Source: an uncultured Bacilli bacterium (lineage in GTDB: Bacteria; Bacillota_I; Bacilli_A; RF39; UBA660). Taken from it: a stretch of 54,501 nucleotides of DNA. The notes beneath the pieces were generated by a model, which searched no databases, had not been told where the DNA came from, and was given only the letters and a program-made list of their open reading frames with translations. The translations under genes and the position numbers were made by a program. Of the stretch, positions 23,421 to 53,052 are shown piece after piece. The stretch is taken from contig CALVUY010000002.1 in NCBI GenBank assembly GCA_944363705.1, forward strand, positions 1 to 54,501. Direction: 5' to 3'. Each line of letters begins with the position of its first letter. Within the stretch, counting starts at the first letter, position 1.

Positions 23421-23431
23421 AATTACTTCTC

Positions 23432-29166: not shown

Positions 29167-29898
29167 TTAATTATTATTTTTCCATAATATTAAGTCATTT
29201 TTTGCTTCAATAACATTATTATATCTAGAATTAATCATTTTATAAAAAATAATTTCAAGATTATCACTTATATCATCTATAACATCACTTATTAATAAAT
29301 TATCACTTTTTTTCTCATTTATTAATTCATTTAAATTATTATAATTAAATGCTTTTTTATTTGTAATTATCTCATATAATATAATTCCTAAAGCATATAT
29401 GTCAAAATTATATGTAACTTTTTCTTTTCTTAATTGTTCAATAGAACAATAAGATACACTACCATAATCAGTTTTACCACCTATAAATTGAGCTGTACCA
29501 TAATCTATAATATATATGTCCTTATTATTAGAAATTAAAATATTACTAGGCTTCAAATCACAATGAACAATAAAACGATTATGTAACATTTCTACTTTTT
29601 CTATTATTTTAATAAAAACATCTATTTTTTCATTTAAGTTATCAAATTTATAATTATTTAATGTAACACCATCTATATATTCATAAATTATATAATAAGG
29701 ATTTTTATTATTAAAAAATAATACTTTAGGAACAAACGACAATTCCTTTATCTTTTGCCATATATATAGTTCGTTATCTAGCATTTTTAGTAAATCTTCA
29801 TCATAGTTTATTAACTCTTTTTTTAATACTAATTTATTCTCATAAGAAAAAGATGTATATACATATTTATTAGCTTCTGTTTCTTTTTTATCTAGCAT
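29167..29898 (-). CDS. Minimal Ser/Thr protein-kinase-like protein (243 aa)
   Basis: Catalytic loop HCDLKPSNILIS, DYG in place of DFG, and SIEQL in the APE position. Candidate beta3 Lys (LVLKKE) and alphaC Glu (DNELYIW). No TM or extra domains. Overlaps the upstream gene by 11 nt. Confidence 0.65.
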   Translation of the reverse strand: MLDKKETEANKYVYTSFSYENKLVLKKELINYDEDLLKMLDNELYIWQKIKELSFVPKVLFFNNKNPYYIIYEYIDGVTLNNYKFDNLNEKIDVFIKIIEKVEMLHNRFIVHCDLKPSNILISNNKDIYIIDYGTAQFIGGKTDYGSVSYCSIEQLRKEKVTYNFDIYALGIILYEIITNKKAFNYNNLNELINEKKSDNLLISDVIDDISDNLEIIFYKMINSRYNNVIEAKNDLILWKNNN

Positions 29899-30199
29899 TT
29901 TGTTTATGTTTATATACCTTTTCTAGAATATCTTTTTGATTAAAAAGAGTTAAATCATCTTCATCTCTACTAATATTTTTAGTAGCATAATCTACTATTC
30001 CTATACCAGGTATTTCATAATCAATATATATAACTTCATAACTAGAATCATCGCCTTTTAATTTAACAATATCTCCAACTTCTAATTTTTCTTCAAAAGA
30101 TGAATTTTTTTGTAAAGACTTAATATATTGCTCATTATTTTCAACTATATTACCATTTTTATCTTTAAATATTAAATCATCAAAACTAAAATTATCCAT
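29888..30199 (-). CDS. 103-aa acidic protein, candidate immunity protein for toxin 1
   Basis: The ATG at 30199 lies inside the last toxin codons (..AAT AAT GGA TAA), an 8-nt overlap, and GGAGG lies upstream. No known motif. Confidence 0.5.
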   Translation of the reverse strand: MDNFSFDDLIFKDKNGNIVENNEQYIKSLQKNSSFEEKLEVGDIVKLKGDDSSYEVIYIDYEIPGIGIVDYATKNISRDEDDLTLFNQKDILEKVYKHKQNAR

Positions 30200-33100
30200 T
30201 ATTACCTCCATTTTCTATAATATTTCTTATAATATTATAAACATTTCTCGTATTATATTTATTATAGAAGTTAATTAAATGATCAGAAATACCAAGTTTC
30301 TTTAATTCTACAATGTTATCTAATTGTTCTTTAGTATATTTCTGTTCAAGCATATTATCTTTTATTTCTTTATTTCCACGTATTTCTTGAATTTGATAAG
30401 ATGATTTGATTAATTCAGTAGCAAGTTCATTTCGTAAATATTTTTCATTCAAGTTACCTGGGAATCTAACTCTATCTAAGGCATCAGCATCTTTTAAAAT
30501 AGTAGCAATTCTATATACCTCGTTAGCATCATTATTACTAATATTATACTTACTAAATATTCTATTAATATCAGCATTAGTATCACCTGTTTCATGATAC
30601 TCTATAACCGCTGCTATTTTATTTAATTCTTCTTCACTATAATTATTCTCTAACTCTTTAAGAGCTTTAACAGCACTAAGTTCAGCATGATTAGTATCAG
30701 TTTGAAGATTCACTCTACCTGAGTCATGGAATTTAGCAGCTTCTATTAGTATATTCATTTGATCAATATTTAATCCTAGTTCTTCTCCCATATACATTGA
30801 ATAAAATAACACTCTTTCAACATGATCTATATTATGTTCAGGAATATTGATATCATAAAGATCATTACTTTTTAAATATCTAACTTCACTTTCAAATCTT
30901 CCTAATAACCCTTTTTCTTTAAACGTATTCATAATATCATAAAGATCTATTTGATTTTGTGCTAGAGGGCTAGACTTAGAAACAAAATTATTATAATAGC
31001 TTAGTGATTGATTTTTACTATTAATTTTATCTAAATTAAGACTTGATACAATAGACTCTTCCTGAGGAATTAATCTAGCTCTTATTTTTATTTGTCCAGT
31101 ATTTTGATCTATCTTAGGATAGGATATAATTTCAAATTCATTATTACGTCCTAATAATAATTCTTGTTGATTATAGTTTTTAATACCTGCAAACTTTTCT
31201 AAATAGGCTGCTTTAGTTCCTTTAGGAACTTCTATTTCTAAGGATATATGTCTTGTACTAGAAATTTTTTTAGGTATAAGCGAAGTACTCATAAAAGCTT
31301 GATCATTAAATTTTTGACCAATATTAAAAGTATTAATTCTATTACCATCTAAATATAAAGCATCTACACCACGGTATACTAAAATATCATCTTTTAAAGG
31401 TTCTGATTTTTCAATAATATTATCCATAGCTTGGACATATTCATCAACATTAGTATATTTAAATAGTTCGTTAAATTTACCAGTAAAATTTATAGATTTA
31501 GTTAGATATTCATTAATTGATGACTTCTTTTTACCATTAAAAAATCTACCTTTAAAATTAGTAATTGTATGTCTCAAATATGCTGTAACTGCTGGACCAG
31601 CTGCTAAAGTATATGTTTGAATCAAGTCTTTTTCAGTTTCAGTATAACTGTTTCCAATTTTATCAAGGATTTGTAACTTTTTATAAGTCTTTTTATCTTT
31701 TCTAGGTAAATATTTAAGATAATCTTTATAGTCAATATCTCTAATAGATTCATTGGACATTTTATCATATGCTTTTTTTACTTCTTGATTATTGGTAGTA
31801 TTTGCAATTATTTCTAATTGATTTAGAAGAAATTGATTAGCATCATTAAAATAATTGGCAATATCATATTTATCTTGAAAAACTTTAACAGAAGCATCAA
31901 TTGACTGTTCAATTGATGAAGTTAATTTAGCAGTTATACTACTACCATCATCAATATTAGTTAATTTCTCTGTTATCTCACTTCCTTCATCTATATCATG
32001 TAATTTTTCAGTTATTTCAACACCATCATTAGAACTATCCCTTATAGAATCAATACCAGCATTAGTTGCTTCTGCAACACTATTTACCACTTCATCGATA
32101 GTTTCTCTTGTATTAGTATTTCCTGAACTATTTATTTTATTAACATCACTAACTACACCATCTTTATCTACACTAAAGAAAGAATCAATATATTCAGGCT
32201 TAATACAATAAACGTTTTTTTCTTCATTAAAATAAACTAAATCTTCTATCTGTGATCCTTTAGGAATCTTTAAAAAAATCGCTCCATCTACAATATTACT
32301 TCCTTGAGATATTCCATTAGCATTTTTAACATCTCTAATTGCATCTATAATACTATCCATTCTAGTAATAGTTGCATCTATATTAATTTCATCAATACTT
32401 GTTGGAGCTCCTCCTCCACTAGCAGTATGGTTATTACAGTATAGACCTATTTCGCTTATAGATGCTATATCAGAACTTGGTATTGTTTTAATATAAACAT
32501 CATAATTAGGGTCTTCAAATAAATTACTAATATACTCTCCTGTTTCTTCACTTATAAATCCTTTATTATTAATATTTTCTATCATACTATCTAGTTGTTC
32601 TTTAGTGAAAAATCCTGATTCTAATCTACTTTTATAAAATCCTGTTATGTCATTTTCATTTAATTGATAGCCATGAATTTCATCAATTTCTCTTGATATT
32701 GGAACTTGTTCTTTTCCTACAGAAATTCCTTTAATTATTTTGGAAATAGCACTTATACCTGGTATATTTATTCCCTTTATTGATTTAGATACTTTATCTG
32801 CTACTCTATTATTTATATTTTCTTGAAGAATAGAAGTATTTATACTTGATATAGAATCAACTACATCATTTGTCGTTTCTATTACATCTTGATTTTCTGA
32901 TATATTAGTATCACTAATACTTTCAACATTACTTAATTTGTTAACAGTTAAAGAAGGTCCATTCATTGTTCCACTTATTATCATACCATAAATAGTACTT
33001 TTTAGAGCATCTAGATTCAATTGATCTCCATCCAATTGTTCTCCTAAAACTGTACCTCTTAAATAAGCATCTATATATTCTTGAGTACCTTCTTCTCCAC

Positions 33101-34694
33101 CTTCTTTTAATATTGATGTTGCTAATTCTTTAAATGATGTTACATTAACATCATTTAATCCTGGTATAGAACCAATCCATTTTTGCAATGTCGCTTCAGA
33201 AAGACCAGATAATGTTCCATAAAAAACAGCATCTCTTGTACTTACACCATTAACTAAAGCTTGATGATAACTATTTCCACCTGCTGATGTTCCCATTAAA
33301 AATGTACCTGCTGTTGGTGTTGTTAACATTCCTAAAGCCATACTCGGTAACATATTACCAACACTCATACTTATCTCATAATTATTATCTAGAAAGTTTG
33401 CAAAATCTTTATCATCACTTAATGCTTCTAATATATATAAACTCTCATATTCTTCAACACTATATACATCACTAGATTGATGCCATGCGGCAAGTCCTAA
33501 AAAGAAATTCTGGGCTCCATCCCCTATTCCTTTACCTGAAACTTTAAAATGATTCATTATATCCGTATAATCATAATTACCATTTTCATCTTTTTTTAGT
33601 CCTTCTAAAAACTTCTCCGCTTTCTTTTGTCCTGCTAATTGATTTATTTGATCTTCTATATCTTCAAGATATTTATTCGCTGAATCTATCCCTTCTTTTT
33701 CATATAAATAATTATATGTTTTTATTAAATCACTATCTTCATCTGCTACTGATATTAATGTCTTTAATAACCCTTCATTATCCATCGCTGTAGCCGTTGT
33801 ATCAGGATAATTTTCTTGTACCCACATACAAAATTCTAATGGGCTTATATTGTCTCCTGTCTTAGTACAATACTCACTATATGATACCTGAGTACCCATC
33901 TGCATTCGCATTTCATCTATTATGCTTTTATCTATTTGAAACTCATAATTAAAGTTTTGGTAATCTTCTTCTTTAACGAGAAACTCATATTTTGCCATCT
34001 TCTTTAATTGTTCTATTTTATATATAGATGTATTTAAAGTAGTTTGTTGGACCTCTAATTCTTCTATTCTTGCTAAATACTCATCATATGTAGAAAACTC
34101 TGTATTCTCGCTTATCGCTTTATCTAAATTTTCTTTTCTATATTCCTCAATAGATGCAAGTTTCTCTTTTACTTCATCATCTTTTTCTTTAAGCACTTCA
34201 AAAAGTTCAGCATAAGTCATACTAGTTACATCTGCTTGATTTAAGCCTAACTTTTCTAACTCTTCTTCTGGACAAGATATTTTATACCCTTCTATTAACT
34301 GATATATTTCACTAGTTATAGTATTCTCATAGTCTTTACACATATTTTCTATAACAGTTAGATTTGTTCCTGATTCTGCAAAGGCATCTTCTTTTAATAT
34401 TCCAAGTTCATTTTCTGTATCTTCTAACATAGTCTGATATAACTCTAATTCTTTTTCTAAACTAGCTTGATATGTCTTTAAATCTGTATTTTCTATATTA
34501 TAACCTTTATCTATATTAGTAAGATCTATTTGCGTATTAGATGTATTTGTTTGTTCTATCTTAGTTTCATTATTAATATTTCCTATATCTACATCTTCCA
34601 CAGGCTCACTACTACTTTTAGATAAGTTGCCATTTGTAATACTTTTTTTAAACTCAGATAATACATTAGGTATATCTATTTTTATCTTATCCAT
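30192..34694 (-). CDS. Giant polymorphic toxin 1: shared 857-aa N-terminal region + R-S-QxE ADP-ribosyltransferase domain + HD domain
   Basis: 1500 aa. ART motifs: YTLAAGPAVTAYLR, LVYRGV (Arg1108, codon 31371-31373), FMSTS (1136-1138) and NQQELLL (1176-1178). HD motifs: DHVERV, KFHDSGR, EYHETGD and KDADALDRVR (about 30462-30845). Confidence 0.8.
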   Translation of the reverse strand: MDKIKIDIPNVLSEFKKSITNGNLSKSSSEPVEDVDIGNINNETKIEQTNTSNTQIDLTNIDKGYNIENTDLKTYQASLEKELELYQTMLEDTENELGILKEDAFAESGTNLTVIENMCKDYENTITSEIYQLIEGYKISCPEEELEKLGLNQADVTSMTYAELFEVLKEKDDEVKEKLASIEEYRKENLDKAISENTEFSTYDEYLARIEELEVQQTTLNTSIYKIEQLKKMAKYEFLVKEEDYQNFNYEFQIDKSIIDEMRMQMGTQVSYSEYCTKTGDNISPLEFCMWVQENYPDTTATAMDNEGLLKTLISVADEDSDLIKTYNYLYEKEGIDSANKYLEDIEDQINQLAGQKKAEKFLEGLKKDENGNYDYTDIMNHFKVSGKGIGDGAQNFFLGLAAWHQSSDVYSVEEYESLYILEALSDDKDFANFLDNNYEISMSVGNMLPSMALGMLTTPTAGTFLMGTSAGGNSYHQALVNGVSTRDAVFYGTLSGLSEATLQKWIGSIPGLNDVNVTSFKELATSILKEGGEEGTQEYIDAYLRGTVLGEQLDGDQLNLDALKSTIYGMIISGTMNGPSLTVNKLSNVESISDTNISENQDVIETTNDVVDSISSINTSILQENINNRVADKVSKSIKGINIPGISAISKIIKGISVGKEQVPISREIDEIHGYQLNENDITGFYKSRLESGFFTKEQLDSMIENINNKGFISEETGEYISNLFEDPNYDVYIKTIPSSDIASISEIGLYCNNHTASGGGAPTSIDEINIDATITRMDSIIDAIRDVKNANGISQGSNIVDGAIFLKIPKGSQIEDLVYFNEEKNVYCIKPEYIDSFFSVDKDGVVSDVNKINSSGNTNTRETIDEVVNSVAEATNAGIDSIRDSSNDGVEITEKLHDIDEGSEITEKLTNIDDGSSITAKLTSSIEQSIDASVKVFQDKYDIANYFNDANQFLLNQLEIIANTTNNQEVKKAYDKMSNESIRDIDYKDYLKYLPRKDKKTYKKLQILDKIGNSYTETEKDLIQTYTLAAGPAVTAYLRHTITNFKGRFFNGKKKSSINEYLTKSINFTGKFNELFKYTNVDEYVQAMDNIIEKSEPLKDDILVYRGVDALYLDGNRINTFNIGQKFNDQAFMSTSLIPKKISSTRHISLEIEVPKGTKAAYLEKFAGIKNYNQQELLLGRNNEFEIISYPKIDQNTGQIKIRARLIPQEESIVSSLNLDKINSKNQSLSYYNNFVSKSSPLAQNQIDLYDIMNTFKEKGLLGRFESEVRYLKSNDLYDINIPEHNIDHVERVLFYSMYMGEELGLNIDQMNILIEAAKFHDSGRVNLQTDTNHAELSAVKALKELENNYSEEELNKIAAVIEYHETGDTNADINRIFSKYNISNNDANEVYRIATILKDADALDRVRFPGNLNEKYLRNELATELIKSSYQIQEIRGNKEIKDNMLEQKYTKEQLDNIVELKKLGISDHLINFYNKYNTRNVYNIIRNIIENGGNNG
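31914..32027 (-). repeat. Three tandem 36-nt (12-aa) repeats in the toxin 1 linker
   Basis: DGVEITEKLHDI / DEGSEITEKLTNI / DDGSSITAKLTSS. Confidence 0.7.
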
Positions 34695-34699
34695 AGCAA
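32125..34699. repeat. 2575-bp direct repeat, copy A (5' part of toxin 1)
   Basis: Matches 41158-43732 at an offset of 9033 bp. The first mismatches are at 32124/41157 and 34700/43733. The translations are identical over 857 aa and the antisense ORFs are identical (33287-33475 and 42320-42508). Confidence 0.9.
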
Positions 34700-34713
34700 G
34701 CCTCCTCTTTTAT

Positions 34714-34956
34714 TTACATTCTATTACTAACATTAGGCATTATACTATTTACTAACTCATTTTCTAATGAATCAACAGTACTTTTTATATTGTTAAAACT
34801 ACCATCTACTACTGTTTTCTCATCTACTACTAAATTTTCCTTAACACTTACTTTTAAGTCATCAAAAGCTTTATCTAATTCTTGATATTTATTTTTAATA
34901 TGATAAAGCTTACTTAATAACTGTTTATATTTTTCTTTAATTAATTCATCCTCCAT
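34714..34956 (-). CDS. 80-aa alpha-helical protein (toxin-partner candidate)
   Basis: The ATG at 34956 follows GAGGTG. The sequence is coiled-coil-like (MEDELIKEKYKQLLSKLYHIKNKYQELDKAFDDLK...). Position immediately upstream of the toxin matches LXG-associated helical proteins. Confidence 0.55.
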   Translation of the reverse strand: MEDELIKEKYKQLLSKLYHIKNKYQELDKAFDDLKVSVKENLVVDEKTVVDGSFNNIKSTVDSLENELVNSIMPNVSNRM

Positions 34957-34969
34957 AATTAGCACCTCA

Positions 34970-35266
34970 CTAACCGATATCATCAAACATCTTAGATATT
35001 TTCTCACTAGTTGCAATATAAGTTTCCATATTCTTTTTTAAAACTAATATATTATTATCATGAATAGAAACAATAGTCTTAAATTTATTTTTAAAGTTTA
35101 AAGCCAAATTATTTAACTTATCAGAATTATCTGTTTTATAATTAAGGTTTAACGATTCAATAGCTGCATTAATATCTTCAATATTTAATTGTTCATCTTT
35201 TGTCTCTACTTCTAAATTTTTAATAGTTTTAGATATTTCCTCAGTACTAAGAAAATTACCATTCAT
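34970..35266 (-). CDS. 98-aa alpha-helical protein (toxin-partner candidate)
   Basis: The ATG at 35266 follows AGGTGA. Helical composition. Ends ..ISKMFDDIG. Confidence 0.55.
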   Translation of the reverse strand: MNGNFLSTEEISKTIKNLEVETKDEQLNIEDINAAIESLNLNYKTDNSDKLNNLALNFKNKFKTIVSIHDNNILVLKKNMETYIATSEKISKMFDDIG

Positions 35267-35275
35267 CTTTATCAC

Positions 35276-35839
35276 CTACATAAATTCATTAATATCTGCT
35301 TCTTTTATTATCTCAATATTTATCTTGGATAACCTTAAATTAACATCTTTTTCTATTTGTTCTATCTTCTCAAAAATATTTTTTACTTTTTCTTTATCTG
35401 TCACTATTTTTTCTTTTATTTTTATTAACTCTTGTTTTTGTTTTGCTAGTTTATTTGCAATAGTTACTGTACAAAAACTCAAATCTAAGTCATTATATAA
35501 GGAAACTAACTCATTAATCTTCTCCCTAAAATCATTAAACTTAGTGATTACCTTATTTTTTTCTTCCAAATTAACTCTAATTTTATTACCAATACTTTTA
35601 TATTGTTCTATTAAAAAAGTATAAATATCATTTAAAGATTTAAGTTCATTATATGTATTATTAAGTTTAATTTTTTCTGAATTTACATTCGTAAAGAAAA
35701 GTCTTGCATGAAAATCATTCCAATAACCGCTAGCCCAATTGAGCTCATTATAAATATTTAAAATATTTTCATAAAAAGATTCTATACTTTTCGTTAATAA
35801 ATCATATTCTTTTTCAAGTGCTAATACATTAATTTCCAT
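35276..35839 (-). CDS. 187-aa helical protein with W-x-x-G-like turn (NWASGYW)
   Basis: The internal ATG at 35839, preceded by AGGTGA, was chosen. The longer ORF-track version (to 36028) would overlap the Esx-like gene. Long coiled-coil C-terminus. Confidence 0.55.
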   Translation of the reverse strand: MEINVLALEKEYDLLTKSIESFYENILNIYNELNWASGYWNDFHARLFFTNVNSEKIKLNNTYNELKSLNDIYTFLIEQYKSIGNKIRVNLEEKNKVITKFNDFREKINELVSLYNDLDLSFCTVTIANKLAKQKQELIKIKEKIVTDKEKVKNIFEKIEQIEKDVNLRLSKINIEIIKEADINEFM

Positions 35840-35930
35840 AGTATCACCTAACCATTTTCCAAATATATAAAAACTACAAAATGTAGTTTCCATATATTTA
35901 GAAAATAAATTTCTAAATAGCTTATCAAAT

Positions 35931-36584
35931 TTATCCTTGAAGTGTGAATGCCTCAGATATTTTTCCTTCAGTATCACCATAAGCTTCAATTGTGCTTTGA
36001 ATAGCAGTTTTAGTTTCTGTTGTAACATTGGTTACAACCTCATCAATTTTAGTTTTAATTTGTCCAAGTGATTCAACTAAGTTTGCTTGTTGTGAACCAC
36101 CAATAAATCCAGAATTTTGAACAGCACTCTGAGCATTAGATAATGCTGATTCTGCATCTGATGCCAATCCAGGTAATTTATTAGCTACATTTTCAGCGTT
36201 TGCTTTATCTATCCCTCTAACACCTCCAATGTTTTCTAAAATTACACCTGCATCGATTGTTTTAGCAGTTGGTGTAAAAGATACTGGAGAATAGCTTGAC
36301 TCAGTACGAGCAGCCCATGCTTGTCCTGCACTGTTCATAGATGCAACAACGCTTTCAAAAGTACTATTAGAGCTTGTTATAATACTATCAATCGCTGGTT
36401 TAAAAGAATTAGTAAAGAATTTTTGTGCTTGTGTACAAGCCCATTTATCTTGCATTCCTCCTACAAAATCACTTTGCATCTTGTCTCCTAAAACTCCTAT
36501 TAATTCCTCATAGGCAGATATAACTTTTCCTATAGATTGACTTACAATTTCTGGATCAAATCCTGTAATACTTGATGTTGCCAT
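35931..36584 (-). CDS. Double-length WXG100/Esx-like protein (217 aa)
   Basis: The N-terminal half has Esx-like layout: ..DPEIVSQSIGKVISAYEELIGVL....DKWACTQAQKFF, i.e. W-A-C in place of W-x-G, followed by A..F. The second helical half has GFIGGSQQANL. The C-terminus ends EAFTLQG, reminiscent as I recall it of the F-G-L-Q end of S. aureus EsxA. First gene behind a strong promoter. Confidence 0.55.
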   Translation of the reverse strand: MATSSITGFDPEIVSQSIGKVISAYEELIGVLGDKMQSDFVGGMQDKWACTQAQKFFTNSFKPAIDSIITSSNSTFESVVASMNSAGQAWAARTESSYSPVSFTPTAKTIDAGVILENIGGVRGIDKANAENVANKLPGLASDAESALSNAQSAVQNSGFIGGSQQANLVESLGQIKTKIDEVVTNVTTETKTAIQSTIEAYGDTEGKISEAFTLQG

Positions 36585-36635
36585 TTTTCATACCTTCTTT
36601 CTTATTAATATTTGATAGTCATCCTATCTGAATTA

Positions 36636-36676
36636 ATCATAATATATTAACACTTAACTGTCAATTAAAATTGACA
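36636..36676 (-). promoter_or_regulatory. Strong sigma-A promoter (TTGACA-17-TATGAT) with palindrome over the -35
   Basis: Minus strand: -35 TTGACA (36659-36664), a 17-nt spacer and -10 TATGAT (36636-36641). Perfect palindrome TGTCAATT-AA-AATTGACA at 36659-36676. Confidence 0.7.
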
Positions 36677-36694
36677 ATAATTTACACAACTTAT

Positions 36695-38343
36695 GTAACT
36701 ATTCAGACTATGAAAAAAATAAAATGTAAAAAGTAGTGTCAACGATGCTGCTTTTTTCAATTATATATGAGAAAATAATAATAGTTAAGGATAGTGGTAT
36801 AAATGATGAAAGTTACAAATGATTTCTATAGGCAATTTGAAGAATTAAATAATAAGTTAGATTCATTATTAAAAGAAAATAAAGATTTAAAGAAAGAATT
36901 TAAACAAGAAAAAGAAGAATTAAAAACCACTATAACTAGTTTAGAAAAAAGCATAAAAGAAAAAGATGAACTTATAGAAAAATTATTAAATGAAATAGAT
37001 AGACTAAAAAATCAAATAAATAAAAATAGTAGTAATTCTAGTAAACCACCCTCAACAGATACAGGAAAGAAAGAAAAAAGTGGAGCCAATTTATATAATT
37101 CTAGAAAAAAGACAGACAAGAAAATAGGAGGACAAAAAGGTCATGAAGGACATAGTCTTACTAAAGATAAAGTTGAAAAGATGATAAAAGATAAACTTGT
37201 AGAAACTAGAACTATTTATCATGAGAGTAATAATAGGAATGGTAAAGATGTTACTAAGTATAGAATAGGCTTAGAAGTAAATGTTTATGTAGAAGAACAT
37301 ATCTTTAAACATAATCCAAATACAGAAGAAAAAATACCAAAAGAGTTTTATACAGATGTAACTTATGATAATAGTATAAAAGCTTTAACAATTGAACTTG
37401 GAACATACAATGTAGTGGCATTAGATAGATTAAGTGATTTATTTAATGTTCTTTCTAAAGGAGTAATAGATATATCTAATGGTACATTAGTTAACTTTCT
37501 AAAAGAGTTTAGTCTAAAGTCAAAACCAACTTTAGACAATCTAGAAAATGATTTATTAAATAAAGCTTTAATGCATACAGACGAAACAACTAACGATAAT
37601 AAATGGTATATAAGGAATTACAGTAATAGTGAAACAGTAGTTTATAAGCCTCATAAAAATAAAGGGCATAAACAAATAGAGGAGCATGATATTTTAACAA
37701 GATATACTGGGGGTATTATGCATGATCATGATACTGCAATGTATAAATATGGTTCTAATAACTATGAATGTAATGTTCATTTGGGAAGATATTTAGAAGA
37801 GATAATTCAAAATGTCTCCGAAGTTACTTGGCCGAAAGATTTAAAAGAATTAATATTTAAAGCATATCATGATAGAAAAGTTTTAATAAAAAAAGGTTGC
37901 AAATCATTTTCTAATATAAAAACTAATGAGATTAGTGCAAAATATGATGAGATTATATCATTAGCCAAGAAAGAAAGTAAAAATATTAAATCTACATATT
38001 ATAAAGAAAAAGCACTTAAACTTATTAGAAGATGTGAAAAATATAAAGATAATCATTTGGCTTTTATATATGATTTTAGTGTTCCTTTTGATAATAATCC
38101 AAGTGAAAGAGATTTAAGGATTATTAAAATTAAAACTAAAATATCTGGAGGATTTAAAAATATAAATAGTGCTGAAGCATATTGTAATGCAATTAGTATT
38201 ATAAAAACATCTCTTAAAAGAAAGATTAATCCTTTTGAATCTATTAAAGATATATTTAACAATAAAGTATTATTTGCAAACTAAAAAGAGCAATTTTTGT
38301 ATAATTACTCTTTACTTTTGCGTGTCATAGTCTGAATAGTTAC
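36695..38343 (+). mobile_element. IS66-family insertion sequence (single-ORF type), 1649 bp
   Basis: Perfect 19-bp terminal inverted repeats GTAACTATTCAGACTATGA (36695-36713 and 38325-38343), starting with GTAA as in IS66. 8-bp target-site duplication CAACTTAT (36687-36694 and 38344-38351). An uninterrupted copy of the target site is at 44303-44310. Confidence 0.9.
36803..38284 (+). CDS. IS66-family transposase
   Basis: 493 aa. N-terminal coiled coil, GGQKGHEGHSL block, CNVHLGRYLEE (C.aH.rR-like) and the C-terminal NNPSERDLRIIKIKTKISGGF block typical of IS66 TnpC. Confidence 0.85.
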   Translation: MMKVTNDFYRQFEELNNKLDSLLKENKDLKKEFKQEKEELKTTITSLEKSIKEKDELIEKLLNEIDRLKNQINKNSSNSSKPPSTDTGKKEKSGANLYNSRKKTDKKIGGQKGHEGHSLTKDKVEKMIKDKLVETRTIYHESNNRNGKDVTKYRIGLEVNVYVEEHIFKHNPNTEEKIPKEFYTDVTYDNSIKALTIELGTYNVVALDRLSDLFNVLSKGVIDISNGTLVNFLKEFSLKSKPTLDNLENDLLNKALMHTDETTNDNKWYIRNYSNSETVVYKPHKNKGHKQIEEHDILTRYTGGIMHDHDTAMYKYGSNNYECNVHLGRYLEEIIQNVSEVTWPKDLKELIFKAYHDRKVLIKKGCKSFSNIKTNEISAKYDEIISLAKKESKNIKSTYYKEKALKLIRRCEKYKDNHLAFIYDFSVPFDNNPSERDLRIIKIKTKISGGFKNINSAEAYCNAISIIKTSLKRKINPFESIKDIFNNKVLFAN

Positions 38344-38372
38344 CAACTTATTTATCTCGTTAAATTAATATA

Positions 38373-41300
38373 CTAATTGTTATTTAAAATATTTGACTTA
38401 TCAATTTCTTCTAATGTTTTATTTAGATTATTTATATCTTTATTTAACCTTTCAATATTTTCTAATGTATTTTTTTCGTATTCAGTTATATCTTTTTGAT
38501 AGTAATAATCCATTACACTTGTACTATCTGGAACATAATCAAACTGTGTAATACTTTTAAATTCTGTTTCTATAGATTTAATCTTTGTAGTTAAGCTATC
38601 TATCTCAGCTGCAATATTTTGATTGTCTTTTTTTAATGACTCTACTTTATTTATAGATTCTTGTAAATCCTGCTTATACTGTTTTATTCTTTTCCTATAA
38701 ATAAGTCTTTTAATAAAATTACTAGAAGTTTCTTTAATTAACATATTCATAGTTTCTTGGTGATTTTTTTCACTAGTAATTTGACTGTTATTTTCTTCTA
38801 ACTTAAAAATATATTCATTTCTCATTTTGTATTTTTCTTTTCTATTATCAATTAATTCATTAAGATGATTTTTGGAAGCGATTATATTTTTAGCTAGCTT
38901 TATCTCTTCTAAAGAATTATTATATTTTTTTAGTTCATCTTGTTTTTCTAATAAGTCATTTCTAATTTCATTTTGAGAAAATTGTGTAATTACTTTAATA
39001 ATATCTTCATAGGAATGTGCACCTTCAAGTAATTTATTAAGAGTTTGACTATCTTTATCATCTATATTTTCACATAAGTTTAACAATAATTCAAAATTTG
39101 GTAGCTTCTCAATTAAGTTATTATTTTCATATAAATTAATAATATTTAACTGACTTATTAAATCAGAAAATGTTTTTACGTTTTTAAAACTGGATTTTAT
39201 AATATTATAAGTTTTTTCTTCAATATTTTCCAAAGTAACATTTTCTATTTTTTCATCTGGCACGTCTAATCTAATCAACAAATTATGCAAATATTCTATA
39301 TTTAAATAATTAGGAAACAATTCTAAAAAAACATTTTTATAATAACTATCATAATAATAATTAGAACAACACCTAAGTAAAGAAATAAAATCATAAACAC
39401 TATGAACATTATTAATATTTAAATTAGATAATATATTATTTTTTATTTCTTCATCAGGTAACGTATCACCTATAATTTTTTCTGTTTCACTACTTGGTGT
39501 TATATTATGAGTAACTTCAGACTTAATTTTATCTTTTAGCATTTTTATATCTTCTTTACTTGTTATATCATATTTGCTTTCTTTACCGAGCGAATCGTAT
39601 AAATCTATTTTAATTTTTCTAGTGTTTTCTTCATTGTCATTAAACTTTTCTACAATATTTAATTCATTTATTATAAATTCAGCTTGACTATAACTTAATT
39701 TTCCATCATCTGGCATATAGATAACTAATTCAACACCAGTTGAAGCCATCATAGCATTTCTCGGCCTTACATCAAAATATCTACTTTGATTATCATTATA
39801 TATTTCCGCTTCTATATTACCTGCTATTTCATTATGAGTAGCAAAGTCATTTCTAAGAACTTGACTATAAAATACAGACTGTCTATCGGTTATTACCCAT
39901 ACCCCTCTTATCCTTTTATTATTTTCATTACAATAATCAAAATAATCTTCAGCTTTTAGTTCTAAACTCTTTTCATTTATTTTTTTCAAATCACTAGATT
40001 TTCTTCTACCTACCAGTAATCTATCATAGTTTTTTTCTGATATATAACCTTTCATTAATAAATATCTCTTCATATCAGCAGTATTTAAACCATCAAATTT
40101 TTTAAATAATATAAAAGTAGACGTAGCTAATGCATTTTTATCTCCTGTCTTAATATAATCTTCTAAATATTTTATAGCGTTTTCTTTACCACATCTTTCA
40201 CTAATATCATTAAACAAATTATCTAAATTTCTATAAGTACGTGGATTCATTAATATAAAGCTACCACTTTCTTCATTCTCTTTATTGCTAGAAGCTTCTT
40301 TAATATTATTATCAATATTTTCATGTTGTTCATTAGAACTTGTATTATTAAAAATAGAATAGACTCTTTCTTTAATACCCATAGGATTTATTGCTTTCTC
40401 AAATTGACTGACTAGCCCACTTATTTTAGAATTTCCAAAAAAACGTCCTAACTCTTTAGATAATTCAGTATATGCACCATCATAAACGTACCTATCAAAA
40501 ATACTTCTTATAGTATCAGGGTCATTATTCAAATAACTATCTAATAAAATATCATTTTCACCATACAGTTCATAAAGTGCATTATCTATTCTCTCCCACA
40601 ATCTTATTCCTACATCATCATAATTATAATAATAAATTTTTTGATCATAATATTTTGATGCTAAATAATCAGTTAAACATTCATTTGAAAGGATATTATT
40701 AGTGCCATCTGAATAAAGTTCAATTATTCCTGAAGCCTGTATTTCTGTTCCTTTAGAAGTTTTAATTTTTTTATTTTTAACTTCTGAAAACTTATGAAAT
40801 AATTCATGTATAACATTATGCATACTTGAATTTGAAGGAAAATATACATTATGATTTTTATCTACAAAGCCAAGAACACTACTACTATGGCCCCTTTTTT
40901 TAACAAAACTTTCCCATTCATTAGCATCTATAATGTTAACGTCATCAACAATACTGTCAATATATGATTTTTTAAATTTTCCCTTTAAAGCTTTATAAAA
41001 AACATTCTTAACTTTTTTTGCATCCCATATATCAGCATCATCTGCTTCAGTAGCAGAAGCCATTAAAGCCCTTATATCAGATTCAAGTAATTCATCAGTA
41101 ATTGAAGTAGTACTTTGTGCAATACTTTTAGCTACATTATCAACATTTTCATTATAAGAACTATTTATTTTATTAACATCACTAACTACACCATCTTTAT
41201 CTACACTAAAGAAAGAATCAATATATTCAGGCTTAATACAATAAACGTTTTTTTCTTCATTAAAATAAACTAAATCTTCTATCTGTGATCCTTTAGGAAT

Positions 41301-43727
41301 CTTTAAAAAAATCGCTCCATCTACAATATTACTTCCTTGAGATATTCCATTAGCATTTTTAACATCTCTAATTGCATCTATAATACTATCCATTCTAGTA
41401 ATAGTTGCATCTATATTAATTTCATCAATACTTGTTGGAGCTCCTCCTCCACTAGCAGTATGGTTATTACAGTATAGACCTATTTCGCTTATAGATGCTA
41501 TATCAGAACTTGGTATTGTTTTAATATAAACATCATAATTAGGGTCTTCAAATAAATTACTAATATACTCTCCTGTTTCTTCACTTATAAATCCTTTATT
41601 ATTAATATTTTCTATCATACTATCTAGTTGTTCTTTAGTGAAAAATCCTGATTCTAATCTACTTTTATAAAATCCTGTTATGTCATTTTCATTTAATTGA
41701 TAGCCATGAATTTCATCAATTTCTCTTGATATTGGAACTTGTTCTTTTCCTACAGAAATTCCTTTAATTATTTTGGAAATAGCACTTATACCTGGTATAT
41801 TTATTCCCTTTATTGATTTAGATACTTTATCTGCTACTCTATTATTTATATTTTCTTGAAGAATAGAAGTATTTATACTTGATATAGAATCAACTACATC
41901 ATTTGTCGTTTCTATTACATCTTGATTTTCTGATATATTAGTATCACTAATACTTTCAACATTACTTAATTTGTTAACAGTTAAAGAAGGTCCATTCATT
42001 GTTCCACTTATTATCATACCATAAATAGTACTTTTTAGAGCATCTAGATTCAATTGATCTCCATCCAATTGTTCTCCTAAAACTGTACCTCTTAAATAAG
42101 CATCTATATATTCTTGAGTACCTTCTTCTCCACCTTCTTTTAATATTGATGTTGCTAATTCTTTAAATGATGTTACATTAACATCATTTAATCCTGGTAT
42201 AGAACCAATCCATTTTTGCAATGTCGCTTCAGAAAGACCAGATAATGTTCCATAAAAAACAGCATCTCTTGTACTTACACCATTAACTAAAGCTTGATGA
42301 TAACTATTTCCACCTGCTGATGTTCCCATTAAAAATGTACCTGCTGTTGGTGTTGTTAACATTCCTAAAGCCATACTCGGTAACATATTACCAACACTCA
42401 TACTTATCTCATAATTATTATCTAGAAAGTTTGCAAAATCTTTATCATCACTTAATGCTTCTAATATATATAAACTCTCATATTCTTCAACACTATATAC
42501 ATCACTAGATTGATGCCATGCGGCAAGTCCTAAAAAGAAATTCTGGGCTCCATCCCCTATTCCTTTACCTGAAACTTTAAAATGATTCATTATATCCGTA
42601 TAATCATAATTACCATTTTCATCTTTTTTTAGTCCTTCTAAAAACTTCTCCGCTTTCTTTTGTCCTGCTAATTGATTTATTTGATCTTCTATATCTTCAA
42701 GATATTTATTCGCTGAATCTATCCCTTCTTTTTCATATAAATAATTATATGTTTTTATTAAATCACTATCTTCATCTGCTACTGATATTAATGTCTTTAA
42801 TAACCCTTCATTATCCATCGCTGTAGCCGTTGTATCAGGATAATTTTCTTGTACCCACATACAAAATTCTAATGGGCTTATATTGTCTCCTGTCTTAGTA
42901 CAATACTCACTATATGATACCTGAGTACCCATCTGCATTCGCATTTCATCTATTATGCTTTTATCTATTTGAAACTCATAATTAAAGTTTTGGTAATCTT
43001 CTTCTTTAACGAGAAACTCATATTTTGCCATCTTCTTTAATTGTTCTATTTTATATATAGATGTATTTAAAGTAGTTTGTTGGACCTCTAATTCTTCTAT
43101 TCTTGCTAAATACTCATCATATGTAGAAAACTCTGTATTCTCGCTTATCGCTTTATCTAAATTTTCTTTTCTATATTCCTCAATAGATGCAAGTTTCTCT
43201 TTTACTTCATCATCTTTTTCTTTAAGCACTTCAAAAAGTTCAGCATAAGTCATACTAGTTACATCTGCTTGATTTAAGCCTAACTTTTCTAACTCTTCTT
43301 CTGGACAAGATATTTTATACCCTTCTATTAACTGATATATTTCACTAGTTATAGTATTCTCATAGTCTTTACACATATTTTCTATAACAGTTAGATTTGT
43401 TCCTGATTCTGCAAAGGCATCTTCTTTTAATATTCCAAGTTCATTTTCTGTATCTTCTAACATAGTCTGATATAACTCTAATTCTTTTTCTAAACTAGCT
43501 TGATATGTCTTTAAATCTGTATTTTCTATATTATAACCTTTATCTATATTAGTAAGATCTATTTGCGTATTAGATGTATTTGTTTGTTCTATCTTAGTTT
43601 CATTATTAATATTTCCTATATCTACATCTTCCACAGGCTCACTACTACTTTTAGATAAGTTGCCATTTGTAATACTTTTTTTAAACTCAGATAATACATT
43701 AGGTATATCTATTTTTATCTTATCCAT
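38373..43727 (-). CDS. Giant polymorphic toxin 2: shared 857-aa N-terminal region + HExxH zincin-like domain + about 800 further residues
   Basis: 1784 aa. The N-terminal 857 aa are identical to toxin 1. HELFH at aa 974-978 (40794-40808), with a downstream NECLTDY Glu candidate. The last 250 aa or so are coiled-coil-like. Confidence 0.75.
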   Translation of the reverse strand: MDKIKIDIPNVLSEFKKSITNGNLSKSSSEPVEDVDIGNINNETKIEQTNTSNTQIDLTNIDKGYNIENTDLKTYQASLEKELELYQTMLEDTENELGILKEDAFAESGTNLTVIENMCKDYENTITSEIYQLIEGYKISCPEEELEKLGLNQADVTSMTYAELFEVLKEKDDEVKEKLASIEEYRKENLDKAISENTEFSTYDEYLARIEELEVQQTTLNTSIYKIEQLKKMAKYEFLVKEEDYQNFNYEFQIDKSIIDEMRMQMGTQVSYSEYCTKTGDNISPLEFCMWVQENYPDTTATAMDNEGLLKTLISVADEDSDLIKTYNYLYEKEGIDSANKYLEDIEDQINQLAGQKKAEKFLEGLKKDENGNYDYTDIMNHFKVSGKGIGDGAQNFFLGLAAWHQSSDVYSVEEYESLYILEALSDDKDFANFLDNNYEISMSVGNMLPSMALGMLTTPTAGTFLMGTSAGGNSYHQALVNGVSTRDAVFYGTLSGLSEATLQKWIGSIPGLNDVNVTSFKELATSILKEGGEEGTQEYIDAYLRGTVLGEQLDGDQLNLDALKSTIYGMIISGTMNGPSLTVNKLSNVESISDTNISENQDVIETTNDVVDSISSINTSILQENINNRVADKVSKSIKGINIPGISAISKIIKGISVGKEQVPISREIDEIHGYQLNENDITGFYKSRLESGFFTKEQLDSMIENINNKGFISEETGEYISNLFEDPNYDVYIKTIPSSDIASISEIGLYCNNHTASGGGAPTSIDEINIDATITRMDSIIDAIRDVKNANGISQGSNIVDGAIFLKIPKGSQIEDLVYFNEEKNVYCIKPEYIDSFFSVDKDGVVSDVNKINSSYNENVDNVAKSIAQSTTSITDELLESDIRALMASATEADDADIWDAKKVKNVFYKALKGKFKKSYIDSIVDDVNIIDANEWESFVKKRGHSSSVLGFVDKNHNVYFPSNSSMHNVIHELFHKFSEVKNKKIKTSKGTEIQASGIIELYSDGTNNILSNECLTDYLASKYYDQKIYYYNYDDVGIRLWERIDNALYELYGENDILLDSYLNNDPDTIRSIFDRYVYDGAYTELSKELGRFFGNSKISGLVSQFEKAINPMGIKERVYSIFNNTSSNEQHENIDNNIKEASSNKENEESGSFILMNPRTYRNLDNLFNDISERCGKENAIKYLEDYIKTGDKNALATSTFILFKKFDGLNTADMKRYLLMKGYISEKNYDRLLVGRRKSSDLKKINEKSLELKAEDYFDYCNENNKRIRGVWVITDRQSVFYSQVLRNDFATHNEIAGNIEAEIYNDNQSRYFDVRPRNAMMASTGVELVIYMPDDGKLSYSQAEFIINELNIVEKFNDNEENTRKIKIDLYDSLGKESKYDITSKEDIKMLKDKIKSEVTHNITPSSETEKIIGDTLPDEEIKNNILSNLNINNVHSVYDFISLLRCCSNYYYDSYYKNVFLELFPNYLNIEYLHNLLIRLDVPDEKIENVTLENIEEKTYNIIKSSFKNVKTFSDLISQLNIINLYENNNLIEKLPNFELLLNLCENIDDKDSQTLNKLLEGAHSYEDIIKVITQFSQNEIRNDLLEKQDELKKYNNSLEEIKLAKNIIASKNHLNELIDNRKEKYKMRNEYIFKLEENNSQITSEKNHQETMNMLIKETSSNFIKRLIYRKRIKQYKQDLQESINKVESLKKDNQNIAAEIDSLTTKIKSIETEFKSITQFDYVPDSTSVMDYYYQKDITEYEKNTLENIERLNKDINNLNKTLEEIDKSNILNNN

Positions 43728-43732
43728 AGCAA
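41158..43732. repeat. 2575-bp direct repeat, copy B (5' part of toxin 2)
   Basis: See 32125-34699. Confidence 0.9.
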
Positions 43733-43774
43733 ACCTCCTCTTTTATTTGCATTATAATTTTATATTTTATTACT

Positions 43775-43889
43775 AATTTTTTTATTTTTATTAAATCTTG
43801 TTTTAGTTTTAACAACTTATTTTCAATAGTTCCTATACAAAATTTAAATCTAAGTCATTATATAAGGAAACTAACTGATTAATTTTCAT
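43775..43889 (-). pseudogene. Remnant of the 187-aa helical-protein gene
   Basis: Aligns by eye to two separated pieces of 35276-35839: the start region (35822-35848) and the 35405-35520 block. The intervening roughly 310 bp are missing, as are the counterparts of the 80- and 98-aa genes. Confidence 0.6.
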
Positions 43890-43980
43890 AGTATCACCTA
43901 ACCATTTTCCAAATATATAAAAACTACAAAATGTAGTTCCCATATATTTAGAAAATAAATTTCTAAATAGCTTATCAATT

Positions 43981-44230
43981 TTATCCCTGAAGTGTGAATA
44001 TCTCAGATATTCTTCAATTGTGTTTTGAACAGCAGTTTCTTTATCTATCCCTATAACAACTCCAACATTTTCTAAAATTACACTTGTATCAATTGTTTTA
44101 GTTATTGGTGCAAAAGATACTGGAGAATAGCTTGACTCAGTATTGCTGGTTTAAAAGATTTAGCAAAGAATTTTTGTGTTTGATTACATGCCTATAAAGT
44201 TCCCATTTTCTCTACAAAAGAACTTTGCTT
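43981..44230 (-). pseudogene. Decayed copy of the Esx-like gene
   Basis: Begins with the same stop-proximal sequence (ttatccctgaagtgtgaa vs ttatccttgaagtgtgaa at 35931). It retains scattered homologous blocks but has several internal deletions and has lost the start-codon region. Confidence 0.65.
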
Positions 44231-44253
44231 TGATAGTTATCCTATCTGATTAA

Positions 44254-44294
44254 ATCATAATATATTAACAATTAACTGTCAATTAAAATTGATA
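44254..44294 (-). promoter_or_regulatory. Second copy of the TTGACA-17-TATGAT promoter with near-palindrome
   Basis: -35 at 44277-44282 and -10 at 44254-44259, with a 17-nt spacer. The palindrome has one mismatch (TGTCAATTAAAATTGATA, 44277-44294). Confidence 0.65.
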
Positions 44295-44306
44295 ATAATA
44301 CACAAC

Positions 44307-44819
44307 TTATTTATCTAGATAATGTGATGTTCTAAAACTGAAACTATCAACCTTACCTTTATTTAATAAATAATCCAAATCTAAAATACTTTCTGATAAA
44401 AGATAAGCATAATCATCTTTATATAATGTTGAAATATTCTCTTTATAATTTTCTAATTCTCTTAAATATTTATTATATTCTTCTAAAGTTAATGTAAACT
44501 CATTTTTATCAATACTTTCTCTTACTAAAGAGAATATCTCCCTACTTATTTTCTCTCCTTTATTATAAGTTTCATCATTATATGTTAATTTAACTTTTAA
44601 ATAATCAGATTTTGAACAAATAAACTCAATATCATTACTTATACTAACCAAAGTAATATCATCATTTTTCTTACAAGCATCTAAAGCTTTATCAGCATAG
44701 TTTTTTTGATACCAATTTTCTAAAGAAGTTAAAATTTTAGATCTCAAATTATCATCCGTTGTATTAACACAATTATTAAACCTTTCTTTAACCATAGCAT
44801 AATATTCTTGATAAGTCAT
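44307..44819 (-). CDS. Hypothetical 170-aa cytoplasmic protein in the T7SS operon
   Basis: ORF 12 nt downstream of the YukD-like gene. No TM segment and no motif recognised. Confidence 0.55.
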   Translation of the reverse strand: MTYQEYYAMVKERFNNCVNTTDDNLRSKILTSLENWYQKNYADKALDACKKNDDITLVSISNDIEFICSKSDYLKVKLTYNDETYNKGEKISREIFSLVRESIDKNEFTLTLEEYNKYLRELENYKENISTLYKDDYAYLLSESILDLDYLLNKGKVDSFSFRTSHYLDK

Positions 44820-44830
44820 TTTACTCTCTC

Positions 44831-45091
44831 CTATCTTGATATCAAAATGAGTTCACTACTATTTCTAATATCAGTTTCTAAAATTATTTCATTATTATTA
44901 TAAATTTTACTATTATCTTTATTTATTAATACACAGTCAAGATCATTAAAAGTATTAATATTATTAAGATCACTAACTGACTTCAAAATTAATTTTTTTA
45001 TTTTCCATACTAATTCATTGACTGGTATAAAAACATCAAAAGTAGAATCTAATTCTGGAACTATTAACTTAATTAAAACTTTATTTTTCAT
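44831..45091 (-). CDS. esaB: YukD/EsaB-like small ubiquitin-fold T7SS protein
   Basis: 86 aa counted from the ATG at 45091, which overlaps the essC stop by 11 nt. Size, position and beta-grasp-like pattern (KVLIKLIVPELDSTFDVFIP...ELILISR) fit YukD/EsaB. Confidence 0.6.
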   Translation of the reverse strand: MKNKVLIKLIVPELDSTFDVFIPVNELVWKIKKLILKSVSDLNNINTFNDLDCVLINKDNSKIYNNNEIILETDIRNSSELILISR

Positions 45092-49640: not shown

Positions 49641-49730
49641 ATGCTTACACCTTTTCTTACCTTATATATTAATTATAGCATTTATTTATTTATTCGAAAA
49701 GATATTAAAAAGAAAAACTCCAAAATGGGG

Positions 49731-50945: not shown

Positions 50946-51064
50946 ATATAATCCCCTTTTCAGATTGATTCATATTATATAACAAAACATATTGCTTGTC
51001 AAAAATTACTACAAAAAACAGAAGATAATAAGTCTCCCATTTTTTATTAAACTATATTTTTCTA

Positions 51065-52913: not shown

Positions 52914-53009
52914 CTCTTTTGTGTTACTTGATTAATACAGTTATACAATAAATATATGTTAATGTCAAGTAAAAATACCAAATTAATATTTGATACTAAA
53001 ATAATATTT

Positions 53010-53052
53010 TTATTGCATTATTATTGCATTATTATTGCATTATTATTGCATA
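53010..53052. repeat. Tandem 11-bp repeat (TTATTGCATTA x about 3.9)
   Basis: Read directly from the sequence. The last unit runs into TATAAT (53050-53055), about 40 nt upstream of the 53093 start. Confidence 0.9.

Follow-up and report, generated by a model that had tools for sequence, protein, structure and literature searches.

Two giant toxin-like genes beside EssC share a base-identical front half that is probably maintained by gene conversion

We analysed a stretch of 54,501 nucleotides from an uncultured Bacilli bacterium (contig CALVUY010000002.1 of assembly GCA_944363705.1; hereafter the window), in which two giant toxin-like genes, toxin A and toxin B, lie close to the gene for EssC, the motor ATPase of the type VIIb secretion system (T7SSb). 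The first 857 codons of the two genes are identical base for base, and the remaining parts of the two genes are unrelated. We consider it likely that toxins A and B are paralogous T7SSb effectors that descend from an old tandem duplication, and that gene conversion has since kept their shared front half, which we infer to serve in delivery, identical.

Results

Two toxin genes share an exact repeat

Toxin A (38373–43727, minus strand) is an intact open reading frame (ORF) of 1784 aa and toxin B (30192–34694, minus strand) one of 1500 aa. An earlier note on this DNA, made from the sequence without database searches, had claimed that the segments 32125–34699 (minus strand, toxin B) and 41158–43732 (minus strand, toxin A) are base-identical, and an exact comparison bears this out at 2575 of 2575 positions, with no scattered differences between the two copies and no possibility of extending the run by even one base on either side. 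Each copy comprises 5 nt of leader followed by nucleotides 1–2570 of the coding sequence (CDS), and the last shared base is the second of codon 857; at residue 858 toxin B has G and toxin A has Y. The abrupt stop that had been reported at codon 857/858 is equally real, since identity beyond it is at background level (25–46% per 100 nt). When mismatches are allowed, homology extends over 2599 nt (99.9%), with three differences in the 24 nt 5′ of the start codons. An exact repeat of 2575 nt cannot be the product of chance. The antisense ORFs of the two copies are identical as well, which is true but trivial because the underlying DNA is identical. The description of the pair as giant toxin-like genes with several domains, set in a type VII secretion locus, also holds, as set out below.

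The duplication predates the split from a sister strain

For comparison we used related loci and contigs (L-numbers) and related proteins (P-numbers), chief among them L001, a 737-kb contig of a sister strain (ENA ERZ21563605). Immediately 5′ of toxin A lies a 585-bp stretch (43733–44317, minus strand) made up of six colinear fragments that are 77–95% identical to 34695–36701, the region upstream of toxin B that holds four small genes, which we refer to as partner genes (p217, p205, p98 and p80). It is a decayed second copy of the partner-gene cluster. Because this remnant and a copy of the promoter lie 5′ of toxin A, the event can be read as a tandem duplication of the unit promoter–p217–p205–p98–p80–toxin. 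The remnant is 87% identical to the intact 2-kb cluster over 588 aligned nt; with that much divergence, 2575 nt should contain about 333 differences; none is observed. The duplicated layout, the remnant and the 3′ junction (CDS nt 2570) recur in L001, without the insertion sequence (IS) that the window carries between toxin A and the partner genes. The duplication is therefore old, older than the split between L001 and the window strain. The unduplicated order, p170-p214-p187/188-p98-p80-toxin, is found in L034 and L003.

Substitutions inside the repeat sort by strain

In a four-way alignment of toxins A and B from L001 and from the window, the sites in both outer flanks group by locus. Within the repeat, by contrast, about 24 sites (nt 241–1831, 2283 and 2289) group by strain, the base being common to both paralogues of one strain and lacking in both of the other. 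About 14 further sites are specific to L001 toxin B (nt 1350–1359, 1969–2250 and 2441), and a dense block at nt 16–222 is specific to L001 toxin A. The two L001 copies are identical to each other over nt 223–1349 and differ at about 19 sites over nt 223–2570, compared with 36 differing sites between the L001 copies and their orthologues in the window. This mosaic is the signature of repeated non-crossover gene conversion, that is, of concerted evolution. The first 70 residues of L001 toxin A resemble the orthologue in the more distant L003, and the 5′ block of L001 A is for this reason the older, A-type end; the B-type 5′ end has overwritten toxin A in the window strain and in L002, a contig from a third sample. 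Between strains the shared region has a synonymous divergence (dS) of 0.043 and a ratio of nonsynonymous to synonymous divergence (dN/dS) of 0.17, as expected of ordinary purifying selection, and we rejected positive selection on the N-terminal domain on that ratio.

The earlier note had left two options for the absence of divergence, very recent duplication or ongoing homogenisation. The second fits the strain-specific substitutions found in both paralogues; the first does not fit a remnant at 87% identity and a duplication shared with L001. A very recent copying of the 2575-bp segment, with no mutation yet and no conversion, would explain the lack of differences between the copies, but the duplicated unit reached into partner genes that are now 13% diverged and full of deletions, the event, its remnant and its 3′ junction are common to a strain whose orthologous copies differ at 36 sites, and strain-specific bases are common to both paralogues; we regard it as very unlikely. 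An artefact of assembly or polishing, with one copy placed twice or two near-identical copies made identical, deserves slightly more weight, as perfect identity that stops exactly at the limits of homology is also what the polishing of a repeat would produce, and exact-protein look-ups of both window toxins returned no record elsewhere. Against it, the independent L001 contig has both genes in the same places, L002 independently joins a window-type N-terminus (5 nt differences) to an A-type C-terminus, and contigs assembled from at least four other samples break off inside the repeat on either side. Among six short-read contigs with p217 from other samples, L056–L059 correspond to the stretch between the repeats minus the IS; on one side L056 reaches precisely 77 nt into the repeat, and on the other the four contigs reach 50–88 nt into it. 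The species is also present in the BRZ and ONAT22 samples. Because assemblers break in this way at multi-copy sequence, the repeat is real and not an assembly artefact. Polishing would have removed at most a handful of differences, which leaves the conclusion unchanged, and we hold the artefact to be quite improbable.

One further contig, L060 (ENA ERZ28614904, scaffold_66273), joins at 1419–1767 the 3′ end of p217 (window 35828) to the remnant that normally lies 5′ of toxin A (window 44015–43667), at a 138-bp stretch of 95% homology. Unequal crossover or conversion in that population could have produced this join, or else the contig is an assembly chimera.

The shared region belongs to a large family that includes phage proteins

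Pfam, NCBIfam and PHROGs yield no family for the shared region, whether residues 1–857, the two full-length toxins or 13 homologues are searched. The absence of an LXG motif that had been noted before is confirmed at the level of family models (Pfam and NCBIfam): no match to LXG (PF04740) was found on either toxin or on eight homologues at E<=0.01, nor on five more at E<=0.001. The constant part is also, as had been stated, far larger than an LXG domain, with a family-conserved region of about 600 aa within the 857 shared residues. The family profile gave only coiled-coil noise against PDB sequences, and a Foldseek search of the modelled N-domain against the PDB returned nothing below E 0.26. 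There was no Pfam or PHROG match on residues 1–857 to the MuF/SPP1 gp7 domain, the sole link to it being a structural neighbour annotated as MuF C-terminal, and no match of the Pfam LPD models on the window toxins.

A word-indexed search found no more than 22 homologous proteins, and hardly any were gained when it was rerun with the alignment. When 1.84 billion representatives were searched exhaustively with a profile, by comparison, 2832 clusters (represented at 50% identity) were retrieved at E<=1e-3, 671 of them at E<=1e-30, with lengths of about 250–5100 aa among those listed. A scan of JGI metagenomes for close relatives found none. The AlphaFold 2 (AF2) model of the N-domain is all-helical, with residues 1–64 disordered and long hairpins at 72–241. 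The Gly/Ala-rich hydrophobic stretch highlighted in the earlier note corresponds to aa 435–507, where three successive helices, each about 22 residues long, contain the invariant motifs GNMLPS and SAGGNSYH; it is indeed rich in Gly, Ala, Ser and Thr, but it is amphipathic and only moderately hydrophobic, with a Kyte-Doolittle maximum (19-residue window) of 1.11, below that of a classical membrane helix.

The family has phage-borne members, namely Clostridia phage proteins of 2000–3800 aa that carry the domain at their N-terminus (107–135 bits, E 1e-26 to 1e-34 at the scale of the full library). Their genes adjoin those for a major head protein and an "internal virion protein" (PHROGs), and 20 IMG/VR viral contigs carry genes of this kind. 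Profile comparison of the two sets of family members with hhalign (probability 100%, E 3.8e-42) shows, for the core at aa 183–565, homology to the N-terminal domain of these giant virion-module proteins. The best structural neighbours of the domain in a viral library (Foldseek) are annotated as MuF-C, PolyVal-ART and LPD proteins. A tblastn search of the core against 50,697 GenBank phages gave no match.

The toxins lie in a T7SSb locus with conserved synteny

In the direction of transcription (minus strand), the locus reads EssC, an 86-aa gene, p170, the 585-bp non-coding stretch and toxin A, followed by an IS66 element (on the plus strand), a promoter-like element, p217, p205, p98, p80, toxin B, p107 and a Ser/Thr kinase gene. 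The housekeeping genes ArsC, RNase III, RNase J and mraZ lie beyond the kinase. G+C content is about 26%, and the nearest relatives are metagenome-assembled genomes of uncultured gut Bacilli or "Tenericutes".

EssC (45081–49640, minus strand) is identified by the equivalog model TIGR03928 at 993.9 bits, against a cut-off of 778.4, so that the motor gene characteristic of T7SSb loci with LXG polymorphic toxins is present in the locus. The 86-aa protein (44831–45091, minus strand) has the position of YukD/EsaB and a weak ubiquitin-like match, and its gene is always found 3′ of EssC in relatives (synteny in 11 loci). The conserved gene p170 (44307–44819, minus strand) marks the upstream edge of the tandem duplication; in L003 and L034 the p217 orthologue comes directly after it. 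A gene upstream of EssC codes for a 404-aa J-domain protein and is followed by genes for an ABC transporter and a GntR regulator. The soluble protein with a Ser/Thr protein-kinase domain (29167–29898, minus strand; PF00069, E 2.6e-27) is also present in L001, L003, L008, L009, L010 and L034.

This arrangement is not confined to the window. Of the 33 loci examined, 12 (10 of 26 GTDB loci, plus L001 and L003) have EssC no more than 10 kb away from a family member. The usual order in the GTDB loci is EssC, 86-aa gene, toxin, and it recurs in several related loci, for example L008, L009, L011, L012, L013 and L016. The synteny persists across loci whose EssC proteins are just 34–61% identical, and the EssC-linked locus L010 holds a tandem WXG100 gene that scores above the family cut-off.

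Some distance downstream, two tandem copies of a gene pair (165 aa and about 375 aa) at 22296–23929 and 24183–25822 share 87% DNA identity; L001 has a single pair, directly after the kinase, and Pfam gives it just a sub-threshold DUSP match. Toxins with otherwise unrelated N-domains and small proteins whose genes adjoin EssC on the opposite strand have a short motif at the N-terminus in common, M-S-[DEG]-[IV]-x-K-I (MDKIKI in the window toxins), with sites at the N-termini of L003 3108–6245, L009 4134–4925 (minus strand), L016 148–720 (minus strand) and P0007–P0013. It may be a common recognition signal for the T7SS of these loci.

A single intact set of partner genes precedes toxin B

Of the four partner genes, p217 (35931–36584, minus strand; 217 aa) is a candidate fused WXG100-like secreted partner with 135 homologues. 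Its AF2 model (predicted local distance difference test, pLDDT, 88.5; predicted template modelling score 0.83) has two helical hairpins in one chain that pack into a four-helix bundle whose first turn holds the invariant W48, and this predicted architecture fits a fused WXG100-like dimer. No Pfam or NCBIfam family matches the protein, the models PF06013 and TIGR03930 included, BLASTP detects no similarity to the tandem WXG100 protein of L010, and Foldseek returns just generic four-helix bundles at E>=0.07, none of them significant. The name "intact Esx" that this gene had been given thus suits the architecture, but no family model matches it. The remaining genes, p205/p188 (35276–35839, minus strand; orthologues in L001, L003, L034, L008, L009 and L011), the small helical p98 (34970–35266, minus strand) and p80 (34714–34956, minus strand), which lies directly 5′ of toxin B, are conserved upstream of the toxin, p98 and p80 likewise having orthologues in relatives; the best model match among the three is a weak one of p98 to the ESAT-6 family (E 0.0028). 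The three closest relatives have retained all four partner genes, and three more distant species between two and four. In the comparison with L034, divergence within the locus is greatest in the partners and the N-domain (63–83% identity, as against 90–93% for EssC, the kinase and ArsC), a pattern consistent with a co-evolving docking complex.

The promoter-like element 5′ of p217 (36614–36676, minus strand) has the form TTGACA-17-TATGAT, with 11 of 12 matches, and is conserved in L001, L003 and L034; the palindromes TGTCAATTTTAATTGACA and GATAGGATGACTATC stand on its flanks. Its duplicate 5′ of toxin A (44232–44294, minus strand) retains TTGACA-17-TATGAT and both palindromes. The position of the element between palindromes (TGTCAATTTTAATTGACA and GATAGGATnACTATC) resembles that of an operator-controlled promoter.

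The IS66-family element (36695–38343, plus strand) is 1649 bp long and has 19-bp terminal inverted repeats, a single transposase ORF at 36803–38284 (PF03050, E 8.6e-27) and a perfect 8-bp target duplication, CAACTTAT, at 36687–36694 and 38344–38351; the DDE_Tnp_IS66 transposase, the inverted repeats and the 8-bp duplication are those of the IS66 family. It inserted just 5′ of the promoter-like element, which is intact. Because it is missing from L001, where the site is empty, from L056–L061 and from every related contig examined, its insertion between toxin A and the partner operon is very recent.

The two toxins carry unrelated effector modules that recur in other combinations

Toxin A consists of the N-domain (about aa 70–600), a module at aa 640–857, a HExxH module (aa 877–1246, with HELFH at 974) and a C-terminal extension (about aa 1250–1784), and has no Pfam match at E<=0.01. 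In toxin B the shared 857 residues are followed by a linker with ITEKL repeats, a C3-like ADP-ribosyltransferase (ART; about aa 1078–1210, at 31065–31463, minus strand) and an HD domain (aa 1289–1408, at 30471–30830, minus strand; PF01966, E 3.5e-6). The ART matches 1OJQ, Lmo0066, C3larvin and Vip2 in the PDB (E 2.4e-8 to 1e-5), and its translation displays YRG, STS and QQE, the R-S-E catalytic pattern of C3-like enzymes. PF03496 does not reach the E 0.01 threshold on toxin B of the window and is on record for the orthologous module of L034, which is 90% identical. The ART–HD pair recurs in other family members, and an HD domain always accompanies the ART. The gene p107 (29888–30211, minus strand) overlaps toxin B at its end and likely encodes the immunity protein for the ART–HD module because its homologues follow ART-carrying toxins in L001, L003, L010, L017 and L034. 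Toxin B thus has both a variable C-terminal toxin part (ART, HD) and an adjacent immunity candidate.

Each toxin gene has an AGGAGG ribosome-binding site and a start codon of its own and is preceded by a copy of the promoter region, and because of this both toxins could be expressed at once. In the relatives that lack the IS, 131–132 nt separate the stop codon of toxin A from p217. The same modules are found in other arrangements elsewhere: L034 encodes a single toxin of 1660 aa that combines the N-domain with an A-type HExxH module (86% identical) and a B-type ART–HD module (91% identical); in L003, whose toxin gene neighbours a DUF4176 gene, the ART–HD pair follows an unrelated N-terminus of 425 aa; and the aa 640–857 region is a separate module, present in P0005, P0006 and P0007 and absent from P0003 and P0024. 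These comparisons show that modules have historically been shuffled at domain boundaries among relatives. The combination of several unrelated effector domains (HExxH, ART and HD) in single giant polypeptides, recombined in relatives, is also a hallmark of polyvalent proteins.

Several smaller observations concern the same genes. A run of seven A residues in toxin A (40030–40036, minus strand; around codon 1231) is six residues long in contigs from three other samples (L002, L056 and L057), which leads to a frameshift and to a protein of about 1238 aa that ends just past the HExxH module; the run is A7 in L058 and is interrupted (AAGAAAA) in L001, and L056 and L057 also have a 3-nt deletion and a later stop codon. 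The variation may reflect slipped-strand on/off switching of the C-terminal extension, or its decay. The (E/S)ITEKL repeats occur in intermodule linkers of the closest relatives (toxin B aa ~895–925, window ~31920–32010; P0004, P0005, P0008 and P0009); as a family-wide junction motif of the VENN kind ITEKL was rejected, with a match within 350 aa past the domain end in just 12 of 159 proteins. The related toxin P0003 of L003 has a 558-bp internal tandem duplication (L003 12840–14003; 98.6% identical), and 3′ of it, at L003 15258–15532, lie a 72-nt orphan copy of its own gene start (98.6%) and fragments of its C-terminus (85%). These are further traces of recombination in such loci.

Discussion

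The history that we propose for this locus would have begun with an old tandem duplication of the unit that runs from the promoter through p217, p205, p98 and p80 to the toxin gene. In the EssC-proximal unit the four partner genes would then have decayed by deletions to the 585-bp remnant, leaving the promoter copy and the toxin gene, and non-crossover gene conversion would have homogenised the first 857 codons repeatedly, the latest tract in the window strain spanning the whole homology block and making the copies base-identical. The shared region would be the delivery part of the protein rather than a toxin. Within it, residues 1 to about 180, a short conserved N-terminus followed by helical hairpins, probably dock with the small partners and EssC in the manner of LXG domains, and the core (aa 183–565), with its three amphipathic Gly-rich helices, may act after export, for example in membrane penetration. 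Homogenisation would be tolerated or favoured, given that both toxins would rely on the single surviving partner set: because both depend on it, conversion would keep both compatible with it, and crossover between the repeats would be selected against because it would delete the partner genes.

Several points weigh against parts of this proposal. The evidence for secretion of the toxins by the T7SS consists of synteny, and no EssA, EssB or EsaA homologues were detected near EssC (window 45081–54412), so the system may be minimal or its other components may be encoded elsewhere. No Lap, WXG100 or DUF4176 model in Pfam or NCBIfam is matched by the partner proteins, and toxin A has no small downstream immunity candidate (window 38373–38343; L001 7978–8111). 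The docking role of residues 1–180 and the membrane role of the core draw on a model of the N-domain of moderate confidence (pLDDT 69), and a transmembrane segment at aa 435–507 was rejected on its Kyte-Doolittle maximum. As for conversion, recombination between strains that replaced both copies could in principle also yield sites that sort by strain, at the cost of two matching events. Finally, consensus polishing could have removed the last few differences between the copies, the identity of 100% being perfect at the level of the assembly.

The earlier note had proposed that the repeats form a substrate for swapping C-termini. They are direct repeats, and a crossover between them would, as it said, remove the C-terminus of toxin A, the IS and the partner genes, a predicted loss of 9033 bp. 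A working switch of the Rhs/CdiA orphan-cassette type, in which recombination chooses the toxin tip to be expressed, could also draw on the length of the repeats, on the occurrence of the same modules in other combinations in related genomes, on the orphan gene start 3′ of the L003 toxin and on L060 as a possible recombinant. However, the locus holds no promoterless orphan cassette, such as a start-less one attached to a short arm of homology; each copy is a full gene, and the two can be expressed simultaneously; the crossover product would lose the only intact p217, p205, p98 and p80, which relatives conserve; no contig was found with the predicted deletion junction; and the L034 toxin carries both module sets, hence it is not a crossover product. 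A switch is thus not supported, and we think it unlikely. Even less probable, in our judgement, is that the two genes are not T7SS substrates at all but polyvalent proteins of a degenerate prophage or mobile element that merely adjoins EssC. The homology of the N-domain core to giant phage proteins speaks for such an origin, as do its structural neighbours among phage MuF-C, PolyVal-ART and LPD proteins and the HExxH, ART and adjacent kinase, which belong to the vocabulary of the polyvalent proteins of phages and conjugative elements (Iyer et al. 2017, PMC5512222). Yet the window contains no phage structural or conjugation genes, its neighbours are chromosomal housekeeping genes (RNase III, RNase J and the mraZ–ftsZ cluster), and the link to EssC holds across strongly diverged EssC loci, one of which (L010) has a WXG100 gene above the family cut-off. 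A location in phage or conjugative elements is seen for the distant homologues, in phage structural modules, and not for the window genes, which are chromosomal.

The reading as T7SSb effectors homogenised by conversion has several implications. The locus would be a clean natural case of domain-restricted concerted evolution, in which the delivery half is identical, the effector halves are unrelated and the flanking duplicate has decayed, and the pattern suggests selection for compatibility with one shared partner set. A large N-terminal domain family without annotation (the 2832 clusters) stands at the start of giant multi-effector proteins, in T7SSb loci of uncultured gut Bacilli as well as in phage structural modules, which gives the T7SS field a second, non-LXG kind of candidate substrate domain and the phage field a handle on giant virion proteins. 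A more tentative idea, which we consider possible but doubtful, is that the core at aa 183–565 is an envelope penetration or translocation module common to giant proteins ejected by Clostridia phages and the T7-secreted giant toxins of gut Bacilli. If true, one delivery domain would serve two unrelated injection routes, and the multi-effector strategy of polyvalent proteins would have been adopted by a bacterial secretion system.

Comparison with known systems

The LXG polymorphic toxins of the Firmicutes T7SS, such as TelA–C of Streptococcus intermedius and the YxiD/YobL group of Bacillus subtilis, have an LXG domain of about 200 aa and small helical Lap1/Lap2 partners (DUF3130/DUF3958) encoded upstream. 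Toxins A and B resemble them in lying beside essC, in having a helical N-terminal region with a putative delivery role and variable C-terminal toxin modules, in the small, putatively helical proteins encoded just upstream and the small candidate immunity gene just downstream, and in the N-terminus common to paralogues of one genome. They differ in the lack of an LXG match, in a conserved region of about 600 rather than about 200 aa, in partners without a DUF3130, DUF3958 or DUF4176 match, in the several effector modules per polypeptide and in the phage homologues of the N-domain core.

Rhs and CdiA loci carry orphan C-terminal cassettes with promoterless tips. There, as here, a conserved N-terminal part combined with variable tips provides homology for recombination; in the window, however, the second copy is a complete gene that can be started separately, and what has been recorded is conversion without crossover in the constant part rather than displacement of the tip. 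In the tufA/tufB pair of Salmonella, duplicated genes undergo concerted evolution by RecA-dependent gene conversion. The toxin genes are similar in that paralogues within a genome are closer than orthologues between genomes and identity stops at the edge of homology, but here just the putative delivery half is homogenised and the effector halves are unrelated.

At the level of a single module, the ART of toxin B aligns with C3stau2 (1OJQ), C3larvin and Vip2, with the pattern YRG...STS...QxE (QQE); unlike the C3 enzymes, it is embedded in a 1500-aa protein and is always paired with HD. The polyvalent proteins, lastly, share with toxins A and B the giant polypeptide that strings together unrelated enzymatic modules (zincin-like HExxH, ART), with a kinase gene nearby here, and a homologous N-terminal domain heads phage structural-module proteins. 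The window genes differ from them in being chromosomal and beside EssC, away from genes of phages or conjugation. Type VII secretion has no occurrence in the description of polyvalent proteins (PMC5512222), and the locus analysed here would, as far as could be checked, tie such proteins to a secretion system for the first time.

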